NCBI RefSeq assembly: GCF_016806735.1
Contig: NZ_CP060530.1
Span: 180,001-212,000, forward strand
Direction: 5' to 3'
Source of the DNA: Candidatus Micrarchaeum sp.
Lineage (GTDB): Archaea > Micrarchaeota > Micrarchaeia > Micrarchaeales > Micrarchaeaceae
Length of the DNA stretch: 32,000 nt
Shown: piece by piece, positions 822-31,186 of the stretch
Layout: each line of letters begins with the position of its first letter
Position numbering within the stretch: position 1 is the stretch's first letter
Translations under genes and position numbers: made by a program
Notes under the pieces: model-generated
Told to the model about the DNA's origin: nothing
The model's input: only the letters and a program-made list of their open reading frames with translations
Database searches by the model: none

Positions 822-922
822 GCCGGGGTCGCCTAGAGGTATGCGCAAGCACTCTAAAGGGCGGCAGCCTGCTAAGCTGTTTGGCTGAAAGGCCTTCGTG
901 GGTTCGATTCCCACCCCCGGCG
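822..922 (+). tRNA. tRNA-Ser(GCU) with a ~15-nt intron in the D-loop (about 841-855)
   Basis: Fold by hand: acceptor GCCGGGG/CCCCGGC with discriminator G; D-stem GCC(831-833)/GGC(860-862); anticodon arm GCAGC-CUGCUAA-GCUGU (anticodon GCU at 871-873); long variable arm GGCU-GAAA-GGCC (class II); T-arm GUGGG-UUCGAUU-CCCAC. The D-loop is 26 nt instead of about 11. Removing AUGCGCAAGCACUCU, which forms its own hairpin UGC-GCAA-GCA flanked by AGAG/CUCU, leaves UAGAGGUAAAG and an 86-nt tRNA. No CCA is encoded. Confidence 0.8.
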
Positions 923-23626: not shown

Positions 23627-23766
23627 CGCACACTTATGTTTTTGAGGTGATCTATCCGCAGGTTCCCCTACGGATACCTTGTTATACCTTAGCCCACCTC
23701 GCGAAACCTTAGTTCGAAAACGCCAGTGGCGCTGCCTCACTAAGACCTCACTTGGGTGGCTTGGTA

Positions 23767-23802
<36 letters not shown>

Positions 23803-24078
23803 TCGATAGTGACAAGCGATTACTAGGGATTCCAGCTTCATGAGGGCGAGTTTCAGCCCTCAATCCGAACTTGGGCCGGTTTTAGGGGATTAGCTTCACC
23901 TTTCGGTGTTGCATCTCATTGTGCCGACCTTTGTATGCCGCGTGTAGCCCAGAAGATTCAGAGCATACTGACGTATCGTCGCCCTCTCCTTCCTCCTCCT
24001 TAAACGAAGGCGGTCCTAACAGAGTGCCCTGCTTATCTCTAAGCAGGTAGCAACTGTAAGCGAGGGTCTCGCTCGTTT

Positions 24079-24597
24079 CCGGGTCAATGAATAATACTCG
24101 CAATTCTAAGGCTGTAATCTTTTATTAGCGTTATGAATGCGGACTGGTTTGCAAGGTAATCCTTGCTGCCCCTTTTGTCCGTGTGTATGTTGAGCCTTTC
24201 GAGTACTACCTCGTCAACGCTGTCCATGCCCTTCAGAAAGATGCCTTTAGCATCCTTGCCTCCGTTGCAGTCGAACAGCGCCGCGAAGTAATTTCCGGAA
24301 TATGCATTGGCGTACTTGAATATGTTTACTCTTCTTTCAAGCGCCTTTTCAAACCTTTTCACCATCGTGGAGTTGTAGAAGAAAGTTTTCTTGACCTTGC
24401 CCTCGCTGTCGATGATTATCTTGTTAGGCTCAATGCCGAACTCGTCCATTGCGAGCTTGGCAAACCTTGCAATCATATCATCGTCGCTTGAGGACAGTTC
24501 AATCCGCTTTCCCCTGTTGCACCTGTATATTCCAAGCATGTAGCTTGTATCAGGCGTTAGTCTTAGCTTTTGTGTCATTGTATCACTCATAGACTTA
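24079..24597 (-). mobile_element. 16S rRNA intron carrying a homing-endonuclease-type ORF
   Basis: The exon sequence GUUAAGUCCGG is interrupted at 24598/24597 and resumes as AAACGAGCGAGACCC at 24078. Joining the two restores the universal GUUAAGUCnGGnAACGAGCGAGACCC block at the correct length. CCGG is repeated at both junctions, so the exact splice point is ambiguous within 4 nt. Confidence 0.8.
24084..24590 (-). CDS. LAGLIDADG-type (double-motif) homing endonuclease-like protein encoded in the 16S intron
   Basis: 168 aa from AUG at 24590, 7 nt into the intron, to UGA at 24084-24086, 5 nt before the intron end. Motif 1 is SYMLGIYRCNRG (24513-24539). Motif 2 is YFAALFDCNGG (24261-24287), about 84 aa later. 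The 60 N-terminal codons of track ORF 24084..24770 are translated rRNA exon and are excluded. Confidence 0.75.
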   Translation of the reverse strand: MSDTMTQKLRLTPDTSYMLGIYRCNRGKRIELSSSDDDMIARFAKLAMDEFGIEPNKIIIDSEGKVKKTFFYNSTMVKRFEKALERRVNIFKYANAYSGNYFAALFDCNGGKDAKGIFLKGMDSVDEVVLERLNIHTDKRGSKDYLANQSAFITLIKDYSLRIASIIH

Positions 24598-25657
24598 CCG
24601 GACTTAACCGGACAGTTCACACCACGAGCTGACGGTCGCCATGCACTACCTCTCGGCTTGTCAGGTAAGATCTTCAGTCTGACCTTCACACTGCCGTCGC
24701 TTCTGGTAATATTTCCGACGTTGGATTCAATTAAACCGCAGCATCCACCCCTTGTGTGCTCCCCCGCCAATTGCTTTAAGTTTCAACCTTGCGGCCGTAC
24801 TCCCCAGGCGGCAGACTTAACACTTACGCTACGGTACTGCAAGCATTCGTGATACTTGCAACACCAGAGTCTGCATAATTTACTGCTAGGGCTACTCGGG
24901 TATCTGATCCGATTCGTTCTCCTAGCCTTCGCTCCTCACCGTCGGATGCGTTCTAGTCAGGCGCCTTCGCCACCGTTAGTCCTTATAGGATTACAGGATT
25001 TAACCCCTCCCCCATAAGTACTCCTGACCTCACCCGCTCCCTAGCCGATGGGTATCTCGCGCACGCATTGACGTTGAGCGCCAATATTTCACGCGAGACG
25101 GCATCAGCCGGCTACGAGCGCTTTAAGCCCAATAATCGTGGACACCACTTGTGCTGCCGGTATTACCGTGGCGGCTGCCACCGGTCTTGCCCAGCACTTA
25201 TTCGCCAAGCTTGCTATACTTGGCAAAAGGTTCACAAAGTGAACCACTCAGATTCCCCCCATCACGCTTACGCGCATTGTGGAGTTTGCGCGCCTGCTGC
25301 ACACCGTAGTGCTAGGGCCCTTGTCTCAGTGCCCTTCTCGGGGCTTATGCTCCCACATCCCCTACGGGTTATAGGTATGGTGGGCCGTTACCCCGCCATC
25401 TGCCTGATCCGCCGCAGTCTCATCGTAAAGCGGAAGCGCTGCAATTCGCGCTCCTTTAAGTCAGGGCTCCTTCCAGAATCCCTGGCCTATGGCGCATTAG
25501 CCACAGTTTCCCATGGGTATTCGCCTCTTTACGGTAGATTGACTACGTGTTACTGAGCCGTACGCTGCCCAGCGAAGCCGCTGAGCGAACTTGCATGGCT
25601 GTCGAAATCTGATAGCAGTGCCCTCCAGCAGCATCGACTGGAATCGATGTCTGGAAC

Positions 25658-28227: not shown

Positions 28228-28503
28228 TCACTGCTTTGCGTTTATGCCCTTCTTTATCTCGGCTATCTTCTCGTCAAGGGCTTCGAGGGCTTTCTCGAGC
28301 GTTTCCGCGGCTTTCTTCTTGTTTGTCTTTATTATCAGCTGCGGTTTTCCGGTTTCCGGATGGTCCTTGGTTACTCCTGTAAACACGACGTCGTCGTTGC
28401 CAGAAAGCTCTGCGGCTATCATGTCAGGTATGGTCGTGTCGCCGTCTTCAAATTCCAGTATGAGTTCCTTGCTTTCGTTTTTTATGACGTTTATTCCATC
28501 CAT
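28228..28503 (-). CDS. rpoL: DNA-directed RNA polymerase subunit L (Rpo11/Rpb11 homolog)
   Basis: 91 aa. ELILEFEDGDTTIPDMIAAEL...VVFTGVTKDHPETGKPQLIIKT...AAETLEKALEAL fits the RpoL pattern (ExH/DT..N.L..EL...V.FA.Y...HP....P.L.I.T). Confidence 0.75.
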   Translation of the reverse strand: MDGINVIKNESKELILEFEDGDTTIPDMIAAELSGNDDVVFTGVTKDHPETGKPQLIIKTNKKKAAETLEKALEALDEKIAEIKKGINAKQ

Positions 28504-28513
28504 GTTGACACCA

Positions 28514-29167
28514 TCATTCCTCGTTGCTCTGGCCGTTGCGCATCAGAAGCTCCTCTATGCCTTTAGAATTGTCATAAAGCGTGCTTATCTTGGGCCTGAC
28601 TGTCCTCTTGCATGAGCTGCAGTACAATCCATCGCCGTGCTTGTCTAGCTGGAGCTTTTCTCCGCATTCGTCGCAAAGCGAGTATACCACTCCGGCTTCC
28701 GGGTCTCTCAGGCTGAGCGTGAATATCTCGTTGTCTTCCATTATTATCTTGGCAAGCACAACGTCGCCCATTTCAGCAGGCTTTGGCTCGTCCCTGCTCC
28801 TGTCATGCCTTTCGTGCATTCCTCCTCTCATCGGTGGCCTCCTTGGTGCCATTAGGACTATCTTTCCGTCCTTGCCGGCGATAAATTCCATGTTTCCTAT
28901 GGAGAAGTTTTCAATCTCTACGAATATTACGCTCTTGAGGACTCCTACCACTCTTCCAAGGACGAACATGCCTCTTTTCATTCTTCTTATGTCCCTGGTG
29001 GCGCTGTTTACGAGCATCTTGCCTTCTTCTGCATCTGCCTTGCCAAAAACAGCAGAATATACAACTCCGTTTTCCACGTATACGTTCCTGGCCGGCAGGA
29101 ATTCCTCTTCTGTAGAGAGCCTGTCTCCAGGAAATACTACTTCAGAAGTTGAAATAGGTTCTGTCAT
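28514..29167 (-). CDS. csl4: exosome complex RNA-binding subunit Csl4 (S1 domain + C-terminal Zn ribbon)
   Basis: 217 aa. N-terminal VVFPGDRLSTEEEFLPARNVYVENGVVYSAVFG, an S1-like core (RGMFVLGRVVGVLKSVIFVEI...GDVVLAKI) and the zinc ribbon CDECGEKL...YCSSCKR. Confidence 0.8.
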   Translation of the reverse strand: MTEPISTSEVVFPGDRLSTEEEFLPARNVYVENGVVYSAVFGKADAEEGKMLVNSATRDIRRMKRGMFVLGRVVGVLKSVIFVEIENFSIGNMEFIAGKDGKIVLMAPRRPPMRGGMHERHDRSRDEPKPAEMGDVVLAKIIMEDNEIFTLSLRDPEAGVVYSLCDECGEKLQLDKHGDGLYCSSCKRTVRPKISTLYDNSKGIEELLMRNGQSNEE

Positions 29168-29212
29168 TCAAATCATTCTGTATTGGGCTGGCAAGGGCTA
29201 TAAGCATAATGC

Positions 29213-29707
29213 TCATACGCGCCTTCCACGCTTTCCTCCTGGCCTTCTCGTCGTGTCCGTAGGTATGGGCGTCACGTCTTCTATTCTGTTGACGCGAAGG
29301 CCGCTCCTTGCGAGCACCCTCACTACTGCCTGGGCTCCATGCCCTGGCGTTTTTGAGTTGTGGCCTCCTGGGGCCCTTATCTCTATATTTATATTCATTA
29401 TGCCTTTTTCCTTGGCAGCCGCAGCAACCTTGTACGCTGCCTGCATGGCCGCATAAGGCGAACCTTCCTGCGAATCTGTATTCACCATCATGCCGCCGCT
29501 TCCGACAGCTATGGTCTCAGCGCCGCTTATGTCAGTGAGCGTTATTATCGTATCATTCTTTGAGGAGTAGACGTGCGCAACTGCCAGCCTTTCGGGCTTG
29601 GGCTTTGCCTTTGTCTCTTCCATTGCCTTTGCTTCGTACGAAACTGCCTCTTTCTTCTGTTTCTCCGCTGACGGTTTTTTATCCGCTGTTTTGCCTTTTT
29701 TAGCCAT
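29213..29707 (-). CDS. rps11: 30S ribosomal protein uS11 (S11P)
   Basis: [17 protein letters not shown]...[21 protein letters not shown]...[57 protein letters not shown]. Confidence 0.95.
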
Positions 29708-29722
29708 AAATATCTACCTTAT

Positions 29723-30265
29723 TCAGTTTTCGGCCTGCTCGACGCTTGGTTCTGCTTCGGCCTTTGCCTCTTCATGCTTTGCAGGCACTATGTCTATGGG
29801 CTTGTAATATCCTATCTTGTGCTCCTCTTCCGCGTTGACCAAATATCCAGGCACAGTGAGCTTGCGCCCGTTTATGGAAATGAATCCATGCGTTATGAGC
29901 TGCCTGGACTGCTTCATGCTCCTGGCCATGCCTCTTTTGTAGACAACGGACTCCAGCCTCCTGTCAAGTATGCTTCTTTCGCTTAGCTCGAGGAGCTTCT
30001 CAATCGGCGTGTCTTTGTCTATGATTCCAAGCTTTACGAGCCTGGTCTTAAGCGCTTGCTCGACGTTTCCCGTGCCAGTGGCTCCGGAAAGAAGAAGCCT
30101 TACGTTGCCTCGTATCCTGCTAAGCTCGCTCTGCACCTTCCACAGCTCGCTCATGTTTTTGAGGCCGTATTCCTTTATCAATGCGTTGTCAGCGTTTATC
30201 CTTGCCAAGTTCCATATGTCCTTTGGCTTGTCAAATTTTTTCCTGTTTCTTTTAGGTGCTCCCAA
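29723..30265 (-). CDS. rps4: 30S ribosomal protein uS4 (S4P)
   Basis: MGAPKRNRKKFDKPKDIW...EYGLKNMSELWKVQSELSRIRGNVRLLL...LDRRLESVVYKRGMARSMKQSRQLITHGFISINGRKLTVPGYLV. Confidence 0.95.
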   Translation of the reverse strand: MGAPKRNRKKFDKPKDIWNLARINADNALIKEYGLKNMSELWKVQSELSRIRGNVRLLLSGATGTGNVEQALKTRLVKLGIIDKDTPIEKLLELSERSILDRRLESVVYKRGMARSMKQSRQLITHGFISINGRKLTVPGYLVNAEEEHKIGYYKPIDIVPAKHEEAKAEAEPSVEQAEN

Positions 30266-30277
30266 GCAATCACTTTA

Positions 30278-30832
30278 TCATTTCTTGTCGGATTTCGCCG
30301 CAGGCGCTCCGGGCTTTACCGCCTGCTTCTTCGTGACTCCCATAGTGGCTCCGGTCCTTCCGGTTGACCTTGTGTGCTGTCCGCGCACCTTCTGTCCGTA
30401 CTGGTGCCTTGCGCCCCTCCACGTCCTAAGCGTAACGTCCCTTGAGACGTCCTGCCTGTTGGCGAAGATCAGGTCGTTGCCTACTACGTGCACGTCTTTT
30501 CCTGTTTCGAAATCCTTGTTTCTGTTAAGCATAAATCTTGGTATCCCGTACTTTTGCGGGTCCTTTATGAGCGCTTCAAGCTTTGCTATGTTCTCCTCGC
30601 TGAGCGAGCCTATCTCGTCCTTGGGGTCTATTTCAAGCTTGTTTTCCAGGGCGTAGCTCATGGCTCTTGCCATGTCCCTGCCTATGCCTTTGACAGAGTC
30701 TATGGCCCTTTCAACGCTTAAGCTGCCGTTGACGTCCTTTCCCGAAATTCTTATTACAGAGGTCAGCCTAGCGGAAGACTCTTTTCTTCCGTGCTGCTTT
30801 TCATTGCTTTGAGTATTTTTTTCTTCAGCCAT
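30278..30832 (-). CDS. rps13: 30S ribosomal protein uS13 (S13P)
   Basis: IRISGKDVNGSLSVERAIDSVKGIGRDMARAM...LTLRTWRGARHQYGQKVRGQHTRSTGR. The start is set at ATG 30832 because the 12 upstream codons of the track ORF overlap the tRNA-Ser 3' end at 30845. Confidence 0.95.
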   Translation of the reverse strand: MAEEKNTQSNEKQHGRKESSARLTSVIRISGKDVNGSLSVERAIDSVKGIGRDMARAMSYALENKLEIDPKDEIGSLSEENIAKLEALIKDPQKYGIPRFMLNRNKDFETGKDVHVVGNDLIFANRQDVSRDVTLRTWRGARHQYGQKVRGQHTRSTGRTGATMGVTKKQAVKPGAPAAKSDKK

Positions 30833-30844
30833 TTGAACACCAAA

Positions 30845-30959
30845 CGCCAGGGCTGGGATATTCAGCATAGAGCATTTGAACCCAGAAGGCTCGAGGAGCC
30901 ATACGCTTGCAGGTATTTAACTTCCAGGCGTACGCGTTACCAGTTTCCGCCACCCTGGC
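30845..30959 (-). tRNA. tRNA-Ser(GGA) with two introns: 14 nt at 37/38 and 16 nt at the T-loop/T-stem junction
   Basis: Reverse complement reads GCCAGGG UG GCG GAAACUGGUAA CGC G UACGC CUGGAA[GUUAAAUACCUGCA]A GCGUA U GGCUC CUC GAGCC UU CUGGG UUCAAAU[GCUCUAUGCUGAAUAU]CCCAG CCCUGGC G. Removing the bracketed segments gives a perfect 85-nt class II cloverleaf with a 3-bp D-stem, long variable arm and G73. Confidence 0.8.
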
Positions 30960-31186
30960 ATTCAAGCTATAATTCTAATGCGTTAATAATTTAACCTTTG
31001 CTTTTTCCTCATGCTGAAAATATGCCTATTTCCCTTTTGCTTTGCACCTATATTTTTGATGGAAGCTTTTTATAACCTTTCATAAACTCGTGATTATCGG
31101 CCCATCAGCACTATGGCATTGCTTTCGCATTTCCAGAAAAAGAGCCCACAGCACAATGATTCACCGCCAAAAATATTCTGATAAAA

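Follow-up and report, generated by a model that had tools for sequence, protein, structure and literature searches.

The tRNAs of ARMAN-2 (Candidatus Micrarchaeum acidiphilum) are highly disrupted: its pre-tRNA-Cys(GCA) carries an intron at position 59/60, and its pre-tRNA-Pro(GGG) carries introns at 53/54 and 59/60 (PMC3239211). These disrupted tRNAs are processed by an epsilon2 form of the splicing endonuclease EndA (PMC3239211; Hirata et al. 2012, PMC3488258), a three-unit enzyme that cleaves both strict and relaxed bulge-helix-bulge (BHB) motifs (Fujishima et al. 2011, PMC3239211). The BHB motif itself consists of two 3-nt bulges with a 4-bp helix between them (PMC5829648). A tRNA with one intron at the canonical site and one elsewhere has been described in Methanopyrus kandleri, whose pre-tRNA-Glu(UUC) has introns at 20b/21 in the D-loop and at 37/38 (Kaneta et al. 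2018, PMC5829648). Here we analyze a gene of 115 nt on the minus strand (30959..30845) of a 32,000-nucleotide stretch of archaeal DNA (contig NZ_CP060530.1, positions 180,001 to 212,000), which we refer to as the window. Our data indicate that this locus is very probably a functional tRNA-Ser(GGA) gene with two protein-spliced BHB introns, one at the canonical site 37/38 and the other at the non-canonical site 59/60 in the T-loop. The gene lies directly upstream of the operon that begins with the gene for ribosomal protein S13.

Identity and predicted splice sites of the tRNA-Ser(GGA) gene

Read 5' to 3' on the minus strand, the gene is composed of exon 1 (GCCAGGGUGGCGGAAACUGGUAACGCGUACGCCUGGAA, 30922..30959), a 14-nt intron 1 (GUUAAAUACCUGCA, 30908..30921), exon 2 (AGCGUAUGGCUCCUCGAGCCUUCUGGGUUCAAA, 30875..30907), a 16-nt intron 2 (UGCUCUAUGCUGAAUA, 30859..30874), and exon 3 (UCCCAGCCCUGGCG, 30845..30858). 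Exon 1, delimited by ARAGORN on the spliced sequence and by covariation, holds the 5' strand of the acceptor stem, the D arm, the 5' strand of the anticodon stem, and anticodon-loop positions 32-37 (CUGGAA). Exon 2 begins with position 38 and continues with the 3' strand of the anticodon stem, the variable arm, the 5' strand of the T stem, and T-loop positions 54-59 (UUCAAA). Exon 3 supplies U60, the 3' strands of the T stem (CCCAG) and of the acceptor stem (CCCUGGC), and the discriminator G73; the terminal CCA is not encoded.

When both inserts were deleted in silico (GTTAAATACCTGCA after position 37, plus 16 nt from the T-loop), ARAGORN called the resulting 85-nt sequence as tRNA-Ser(GGA). 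Removal of either segment alone yielded no serine tRNA. The spliced cloverleaf has a 7-bp acceptor stem, a 3-bp D stem extended by G13.A22, a 5-bp anticodon stem, a 5-bp variable arm, a 5-bp T stem, the T-loop UUCAAAU, and G73. The serine identity set is present, with the long variable arm GGCUC-CUC-GAGCC, G73, and the anticodon GGA, which is invariant in all 59 orthologs described below. The identity given to the gene by the original prediction, made from the same DNA, is thus supported both by ARAGORN on the 85-nt spliced sequence and by these 59 orthologs.

Neither ARAGORN, with and without its intron mode, nor the Rfam tRNA model, at its gathering threshold or at E ≤ 10 with permissive filters, reported a tRNA at the unspliced locus. 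These misses are expected because the gene contains two introns, and they provide no evidence against it. Across the whole window, the sole ARAGORN call was a tRNA-Lys(UUU) at 1647-1722, and Rfam matched the same tRNA-Lys(UUU), an archaeal signal recognition particle (SRP) RNA, and an archaeal 16S rRNA. Folded without constraints, the unspliced RNA already takes the form of a cloverleaf at its energy minimum of −44.7 kcal/mol, with the two inserts lying in the anticodon and T arms; 2 of 200 shuffled sequences did as well (z = −2.83). The G+C content of the window is 46%.

In each bulge of its substrate, the cut made by the splicing endonuclease follows the second nucleotide. Deletion of the 16-nt T-loop insert in any of three registers (58/59, 59/60, or 60/61) gives an identical product, and the insert had originally been placed at 60/61. 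That register was ruled out by BHB geometry: the symmetry of the motif, together with the cut rule, places the intron at 59/60, with UGCUCUAUGCUGAAUA as the intron and the spliced product unchanged. The resulting motif is a strict hBHBh' in which the T stem CUGGG/CCCAG, the bulge A58 A59|U, a 4-bp helix between U54U55C56A57 and the intron sequence UGAA, the bulge UA|U60, and a GC/GC inner helix closing a 5-nt loop follow one another. For the T arm with intron 2, the BHB model has a predicted energy of −8.6 versus a minimum of −8.9 kcal/mol, a difference of 0.3.

At the anticodon, intron 1 fits this geometry only as a relaxed motif, composed of a C32-G(−3) pair, a U33.U(−4) mismatch, G34-C and G35-C pairs, the bulges AA|G and CA|A, and an inner helix of 1 bp. 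This 37/38 motif fits the published relaxed hBH/BHL class (PMC5829648). BHB motifs are thus present at both exon-intron junctions, strict at 59/60 and relaxed at 37/38. Together with in-silico splicing and the orthologs, these motifs sustain the two inserts proposed originally, 14 nt after position 37 and 16 nt in the T-loop.

Judging from the established course of archaeal tRNA maturation, RNase P would trim the 5' end of the pre-tRNA and RNase Z its 3' end. EndA would cut between the second and third nucleotides of each 3-nt bulge, RtcB would join the three exons, and CCA would then be added. The mature 85-nt tRNA would decode UCC and UCU.

Orthologs in Micrarchaeota and rival explanations

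Our comparative sample consisted of the S13 loci of 80 GTDB species representatives (the 80 best GTDB loci, almost all from Micrarchaeota metagenome-assembled genomes [MAGs]). The region upstream of S13 in each was searched by a structure-aware scan that permits an insert in the T-loop, and its parser resolved 65 of 65 loci that carry the 5' motif. A tRNA-Ser(GGA) was found upstream of S13 in 59 of the 80 species loci. Both introns are present in 53 species, with variable sequence and with lengths of 11-24 nt at 37/38 and 13-40 nt at 59/60. The six other species (L015, L026, and L031-L034) have only the 37/38 intron, and their UUCAAAU T-loop is intact. Four of these six were scanned with Rfam RF00005 (L015, L026, L031, and L033) and scored 44-47 bits against a threshold of 29 bits, so the gene family is independently confirmed by a curated model. 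The remaining 21 loci, one of which is truncated at the end of its contig, have no tRNA at this place.

A UAGGG/CCCUA T stem is common to the six species that lack the T-loop intron, and in all of them the tRNA lies at least 136 nt upstream of the S13 start. The shared stem and distance may reflect a single clade or, alternatively, a link between the intron and the adjacency of the two genes.

The same sample and the S13 homologs allowed us to place the host. A protein identical to the S13 of the window is encoded on contigs of GCA_027316705.1, GCA_027448505.1, and GCA_002503225.1 and of three Joint Genome Institute (JGI) metagenomes. Homologs at 55-97% identity are labeled Micrarchaeota, 'Marsarchaeota', or Ca. 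Mancarchaeum, the last of which is the nearest named relative of the window. These labels and the GTDB loci identify the host as an archaeon of the Micrarchaeota (DPANN).

In an alignment of the spliced orthologs (45 distinct sequences), 98.0% of the cells at paired positions were paired, compared with 21-56% in slid controls. Changes on both sides occurred at 10 of 25 pairs; for example, A4-U69 of the acceptor stem alternates with G-C, and a C-G pair of the T stem alternates with U-A. The anticodon stem shows a G-C to A-U switch in 21 sequences. A separate alignment of 38 distinct T-loop BHB variants was anchored at both intron ends, with nothing imposed on the intron itself. Here, the central helix (H) was 100% paired and the intron sequence UGAA was nearly invariant. 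The first two pairs of the inner helix were paired in 38 of 38 and 37 of 38 variants, with switches of GC to UA and of CG to AU, GC, or UA. The covariation score of this alignment was 0.241 versus 0.083 for shuffled alignments, and none of 500 shuffles reached the observed value.

How do the introns evolve relative to the exons that flank them? The normalized edit distance was 0.10 for the exons, 0.49 for intron 1, and 0.50 for the interior of intron 2. For the last six nucleotides of intron 2, which belong to the BHB motif, it was 0.07. At the anticodon, the C32-G(−3) pair was retained in 52 of 53 distinct variants, and the last two nucleotides of intron 1 vary freely. Read from the sequences, drifting interiors combined with conserved BHB parts are the signature of spliced BHB introns, and not of retention, a pseudogene, or chance. 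The presence of a 59/60 intron in the same tRNA at 53 of 80 loci fits long vertical inheritance of a non-canonical intron, in contrast to the recent gain and transposition of introns that have been discussed for Thermoproteales.

Two further observations were made among the relatives. In L021, the ortholog (∼2876-2987) has C33 (loop CCGGAGA) rather than the near-universal U33, and its intron pairs perfectly as CCGG/CCGG. In five species (L012, at ∼2541-2639, L022, L023, L029, and L040), the neighboring tRNA-Lys(UUU), upstream of the tRNA-Ser, has a 59/60 intron of its own, 15-40 nt long and with the same UUCA/UGAA helix; the tRNA-Lys(UUU) of the window contains no intron. More than one tRNA of the phylum therefore uses the 59/60 site, and the presence of the intron varies by species.

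An alternative to a spliced, decoding tRNA is that the element acts chiefly as a leader or processing signal of tRNA-like form for the S13 operon, or is a decaying tRNA pseudogene, with its inserts left unspliced. In such a role, its structure would offer a handle to RNase P/Z or to a ribosomal protein. The S13 start codon lies 12 nt away in a conserved arrangement, tRNA-less Micrarchaeota have another conserved hairpin leader in the same place, and standard tRNA finders miss the gene, all of which would suit such an element. However, the 59 species show no or almost no variation in the GGA anticodon, G73, the long variable arm, G18G19, and the UUCAAAU T-loop, and compensatory changes occur in all stems. 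Moreover, six species have the tRNA at a distance from S13, the four of them that were scanned score as ordinary tRNAs with Rfam, and BHB features are conserved while intron interiors drift. We consider a leader or pseudogene very unlikely on these grounds, although the two roles, in processing and in decoding, could coexist.

Could the inserts instead be retained, so that the mature RNA has an expanded T-loop, an expanded anticodon region, or both? The unspliced RNA already folds in a cloverleaf-like manner, a point in favor of retention, but the length of the T-loop insert varies between 13 and 40 nt, and six species lack the insert, whereas the UUCAAA...U on its two sides never changes. Conservation within the insert is limited to the parts that build the BHB motif, the 59/60 site of ARMAN-2 substrates is cleaved in vitro (PMC3239211, PMC5829648), and a T-loop of 23-47 nt would be incompatible with the established, conserved interaction between the T-loop and the D-loop of tRNA. 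Retention is accordingly a scarcely credible explanation. We give just as little credence to removal of the anticodon-loop intron at 36/37, which would place the anticodon GGC on a serine-type body. This possibility arises from ARAGORN, whose -i option gives the label 'tRNA-Ala(GGC) i(37-38, 12-14)' to several orthologs and to the present gene when only its T-loop insert is deleted; other orthologs are called Ser(GGA) by ARAGORN itself. The BHB rule, with bulges 4 bp apart and cuts after the second nucleotide, fits 37/38, and the retained C32-G(−3) pair between anticodon loop and intron, together with the free terminal intron nucleotides, favors 37/38 as well. A class II body with G73 and a long variable arm is an established serine identity set, and a GGC anticodon on such a body would misread alanine codons as serine. 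The 36/37 intron was rejected on the basis of this geometry, the conserved pair, and the serine-type body.

Several points weigh against the reading of the locus as a functional, twice-spliced tRNA-Ser(GGA) gene. From sequence we infer the splicing itself, the 85-nt mature RNA, and the structure of the transcript, and the genome may contain a second, intron-less tRNA-Ser(GGA) copy elsewhere. The parser located the 3' strands of the acceptor, anticodon, and T stems by complementarity, which makes their 100% pairing partly a matter of construction. In the nearest-neighbor model, the relaxed BHB of intron 1 has an energy of 0.0 versus a minimum of −7.3 kcal/mol, and recognition of this intron would depend on the enzyme. 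No EndA (PF01974/PF02778) was detected with Pfam in the window or in the flanks of the identical contigs. An M. jannaschii EndA sequence was validated against PDB 1A79, and the ARMAN-2 catalytic unit (unit 2) was recovered from the 4FZ2 alignment. A protein-collection search with the latter returned 47 proteins, mostly single-unit and of 180-210 amino acids (aa); none of the 47 was tied to this genome, and the one that was looked up (P0126) belongs to a different assembly.

The junction between the tRNA and the S13 operon

The tRNA gene is followed on the same strand by rps13 (30278..30832, minus strand), which encodes an S13 of 184 aa. It is the first gene of the cluster S13-S4-S11-Csl4-like-Rpo11/L, which runs to 28228 and was assigned from Pfam matches on the identical contigs, homologs named 30S ribosomal protein S13, and open reading frames (ORFs). 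By coordinates, 12 nt lie between the discriminator G (30845) and the A of the S13 ATG (30832), one fewer than the 13-nt gap reported originally. This spacer (UUUGGUGUUCAA, 30833..30844) contains a Shine-Dalgarno-like GGUG at 30841..30838 that is complementary to the 16S 3' end ...GAUCACCUC. Among the 53 species that have the T-loop intron, ∼46 have an S13 start no more than 45 nt from the end of the tRNA (about 10-45 nt, mostly 10-26), and most of these spacers include GGTG.

Upstream of the tRNA, at 30983..30999 on the minus strand (−40 to −24 relative to tRNA position 1), we read from the sequence a putative archaeal promoter in which an AAAGG resembling the B recognition element (BRE) precedes the TATA-like TTAAATTATTAA. 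Most relatives have a yTAAATA or TTTAAA box, with purines before it, at about −35 to −26 upstream of the orthologous tRNA. Directly 3' of the tRNA there is only TTT, and the spacer leaves no room for a promoter. A promoter for S13 inside the T-loop intron, whose 3' end lies 27-42 nt upstream of the ATG, was considered and rejected; many orthologous introns, such as AGCCUAGGCUGAAUA, contain no TATA-like sequence, and the conserved GGTG points to a leadered S13 mRNA, which also counts against an intron promoter.

The 12-nt gap with its GGUG, taken together with the lack of an evident separate promoter, makes it most likely that S13-S4-S11 is read through the tRNA gene. The primary transcript would start from the TATA/BRE promoter ∼30 nt upstream of the tRNA, the operon would be transcribed through the tRNA gene, and RNase Z cleavage would both free the tRNA and create the 5' end of an S13 mRNA with a 12-nt leader. 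Co-transcription followed by such RNase Z processing is the most economical reading of the junction, and we regard it as probable. Against it stands the fact that the argument is one from spacing, and a weak internal promoter may be present. The co-transcription with the S13 operon that was suggested originally is therefore still likely, given the spacing, the GGTG, and the TATA-like box upstream of the tRNA. We searched the literature for a co-transcript of tRNA-Ser and S13 in archaea and found no relevant report. The junction offers a natural case in which to ask, do archaeal tRNA-processing enzymes make the 5' ends of ribosomal-protein mRNAs?

A bolder proposal is that the T-loop intron and the tight tRNA-S13 junction form one module, in which processing by EndA and RNase Z gates or times the maturation of the 5' end of the S13-S4-S11 mRNA. 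If this were true, the mRNA would arise solely as the trailer of a pre-tRNA-Ser with introns, and such a coupling would account for the persistence of a non-canonical intron at a single site throughout the phylum sample. All six species without the T-loop intron have the tRNA at least 136 nt from S13, and ∼46 of the 53 with it have the tRNA within 45 nt, an association among species that are not phylogenetically independent. We view the module as improbable.

At loci where no tRNA precedes S13 (L013, L025, L058, L063, L065, L071, and L077; L018, L027, L045, and L081), the ∼100 nt upstream contain a TTTAAATA promoter box, a hairpin, and a GGTG-ATG. The hairpin is conserved, as CUCUGAAG...UUCUCAGAG or as UUCUCGUC...ACGAGAG, and may be a ribosomal-protein leader in the place that is held elsewhere by the tRNA. 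Within the cluster of the window (28228-30832, minus strand), the genes after S13-S4-S11 encode a Csl4-like exosome subunit (ECR1_N) and Rpo11/L (RNA_pol_L_2). RpoD, which usually comes after S11 in archaeal equivalents of the alpha operon, is not there.

Splicing endonuclease, other likely substrates, and known systems

Relaxed introns and introns outside the anticodon loop are removed only by (alpha-beta)2 and epsilon2 enzymes (Kaneta et al. 2018, PMC5829648). An epsilon2 EndA is reported for Ca. Mancarchaeum, and loop-bearing alpha4 enzymes for several DPANN lineages (PMC5829648). The original prediction had called for an endonuclease of relaxed specificity. The T-loop motif does not bear this out, being a strict hBHBh'; the need for broad specificity rests instead on the relaxed 37/38 motif and on the published lineage correlations (PMC5829648). 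In one relative (L087, 3414-5305, GCA_023247085.1), we observed a single-unit EndA homolog of 193 aa that shares 69% identity with the ARMAN-2 catalytic unit. ORFs of 197 aa and 213 aa, neither with a Pfam match, lie on either side of it, and the upstream ORF overlaps it by 7 nt; the two ORFs and the EndA homolog may be separate subunits of a split multi-unit endonuclease.

The window contains other candidate substrates for EndA. A tRNA-Ser(GCU) at 822-922 (plus strand), just after the SRP RNA (521-783), has a 17-nt intron (AUGCGCAAGCACUCUAA, 841-857) at D-loop position 20/21, which was resolved by hand from BHB geometry and then confirmed. Its strict hBHBh' (GCCU/GGGC, bulge, AGAG/CUCU, bulge, UGC/GCA) is the minimum-energy fold. 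Default ARAGORN and Rfam missed this gene, and the label 'tRNA-Pyl(CUA)' given by ARAGORN in intron mode is wrong; enumeration of single deletions with ARAGORN at 822-922 was discarded as too permissive, with many spurious anticodons. The 16S rRNA (25644..23642, minus strand) is 2003 nt long versus a model of 1478 positions, and a single insertion of ∼520 nt (∼24602-24077) interrupts its GUUAAG^UCCGG loop, close to E. coli position 1100. At its junctions, this insertion folds into a 3-nt bulge, a CCGG-CCGG helix, and a second 3-nt bulge, and splicing in that register restores GUUAAGUCCGGUAACGAGCG; by its sequence, the insertion is likely a BHB rRNA intron. A 151-aa ORF within it (24539-24084, minus strand) has a YFAALFDCNGG motif, and its sole Pfam match, LAGLIDADG_3, is below threshold (E 0.0077, 16.9 bits versus a cut-off of 22.5 bits), so the ORF may be a degenerate homing endonuclease. 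With tRNA-Ser(GGA), tRNA-Ser(GCU), and the 16S rRNA, there are at least three likely EndA substrates in 32 kb, which fits an intron-rich lineage. Default finders (ARAGORN and the Rfam tRNA model) miss both serine tRNAs of the window, including the reader of UCC and UCU. Automated annotation of such MAGs would consequently report tRNAs as absent and underestimate completeness.

In the published work that we compared, we found no account of a Ser(GGA) gene that combines a 37/38 with a 59/60 intron, of the occurrence of the latter at 53 of 80 loci, or of a junction between this gene and S13. Co-transcripts of tRNA and mRNA that are resolved by tRNA-processing nucleases include the thrU-tyrU-glyT-thrT-tufB operon of E. 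coli and the 'tRNA punctuation' of mitochondria. As in these systems, a tRNA here stands directly upstream of a translation-related coding sequence, and 3' processing would define the 5' end of the mRNA. Unlike them, the present case is archaeal, the upstream tRNA would also need splicing, and processing at the junction is something we infer.

Among tRNAs with multiple introns, those of Thermoproteales and other Crenarchaeota reportedly carry up to three BHB introns at non-canonical sites, including 59/60, cleaved by an (alpha-beta)2 EndA. The gene in the window resembles them in having more than one BHB intron, in its use of 59/60, and in being missed by standard finders. The host is by its S13 homologs a micrarchaeote of the DPANN, not a relative of the Thermoproteales, which belong to the TACK archaea and have a different endonuclease architecture. 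The tRNA-Glu of M. kandleri likewise has two introns, one canonical and one non-canonical, and its D-loop site resembles the 20/21 intron of the window tRNA at 822-922. Its non-canonical intron is relaxed (HBh'), whereas the non-canonical introns of the window are strict and the canonical one is relaxed.

The closest likeness is to ARMAN-2, which shares with this locus the phylum, the 59/60 T-loop position, short BHB introns, and multi-intron genes; the strict hBHBh' found here also matches the motif described for ARMAN-2 tRNA-Pro(GGG). What differs is the tRNA, Ser(GGA), the combination of 37/38 with 59/60, and the abutment of the gene on the S13 operon. The gene is a further example of the phenomenon described in the same phylum for ARMAN-2 in 2011, and it extends that picture without overturning current understanding.

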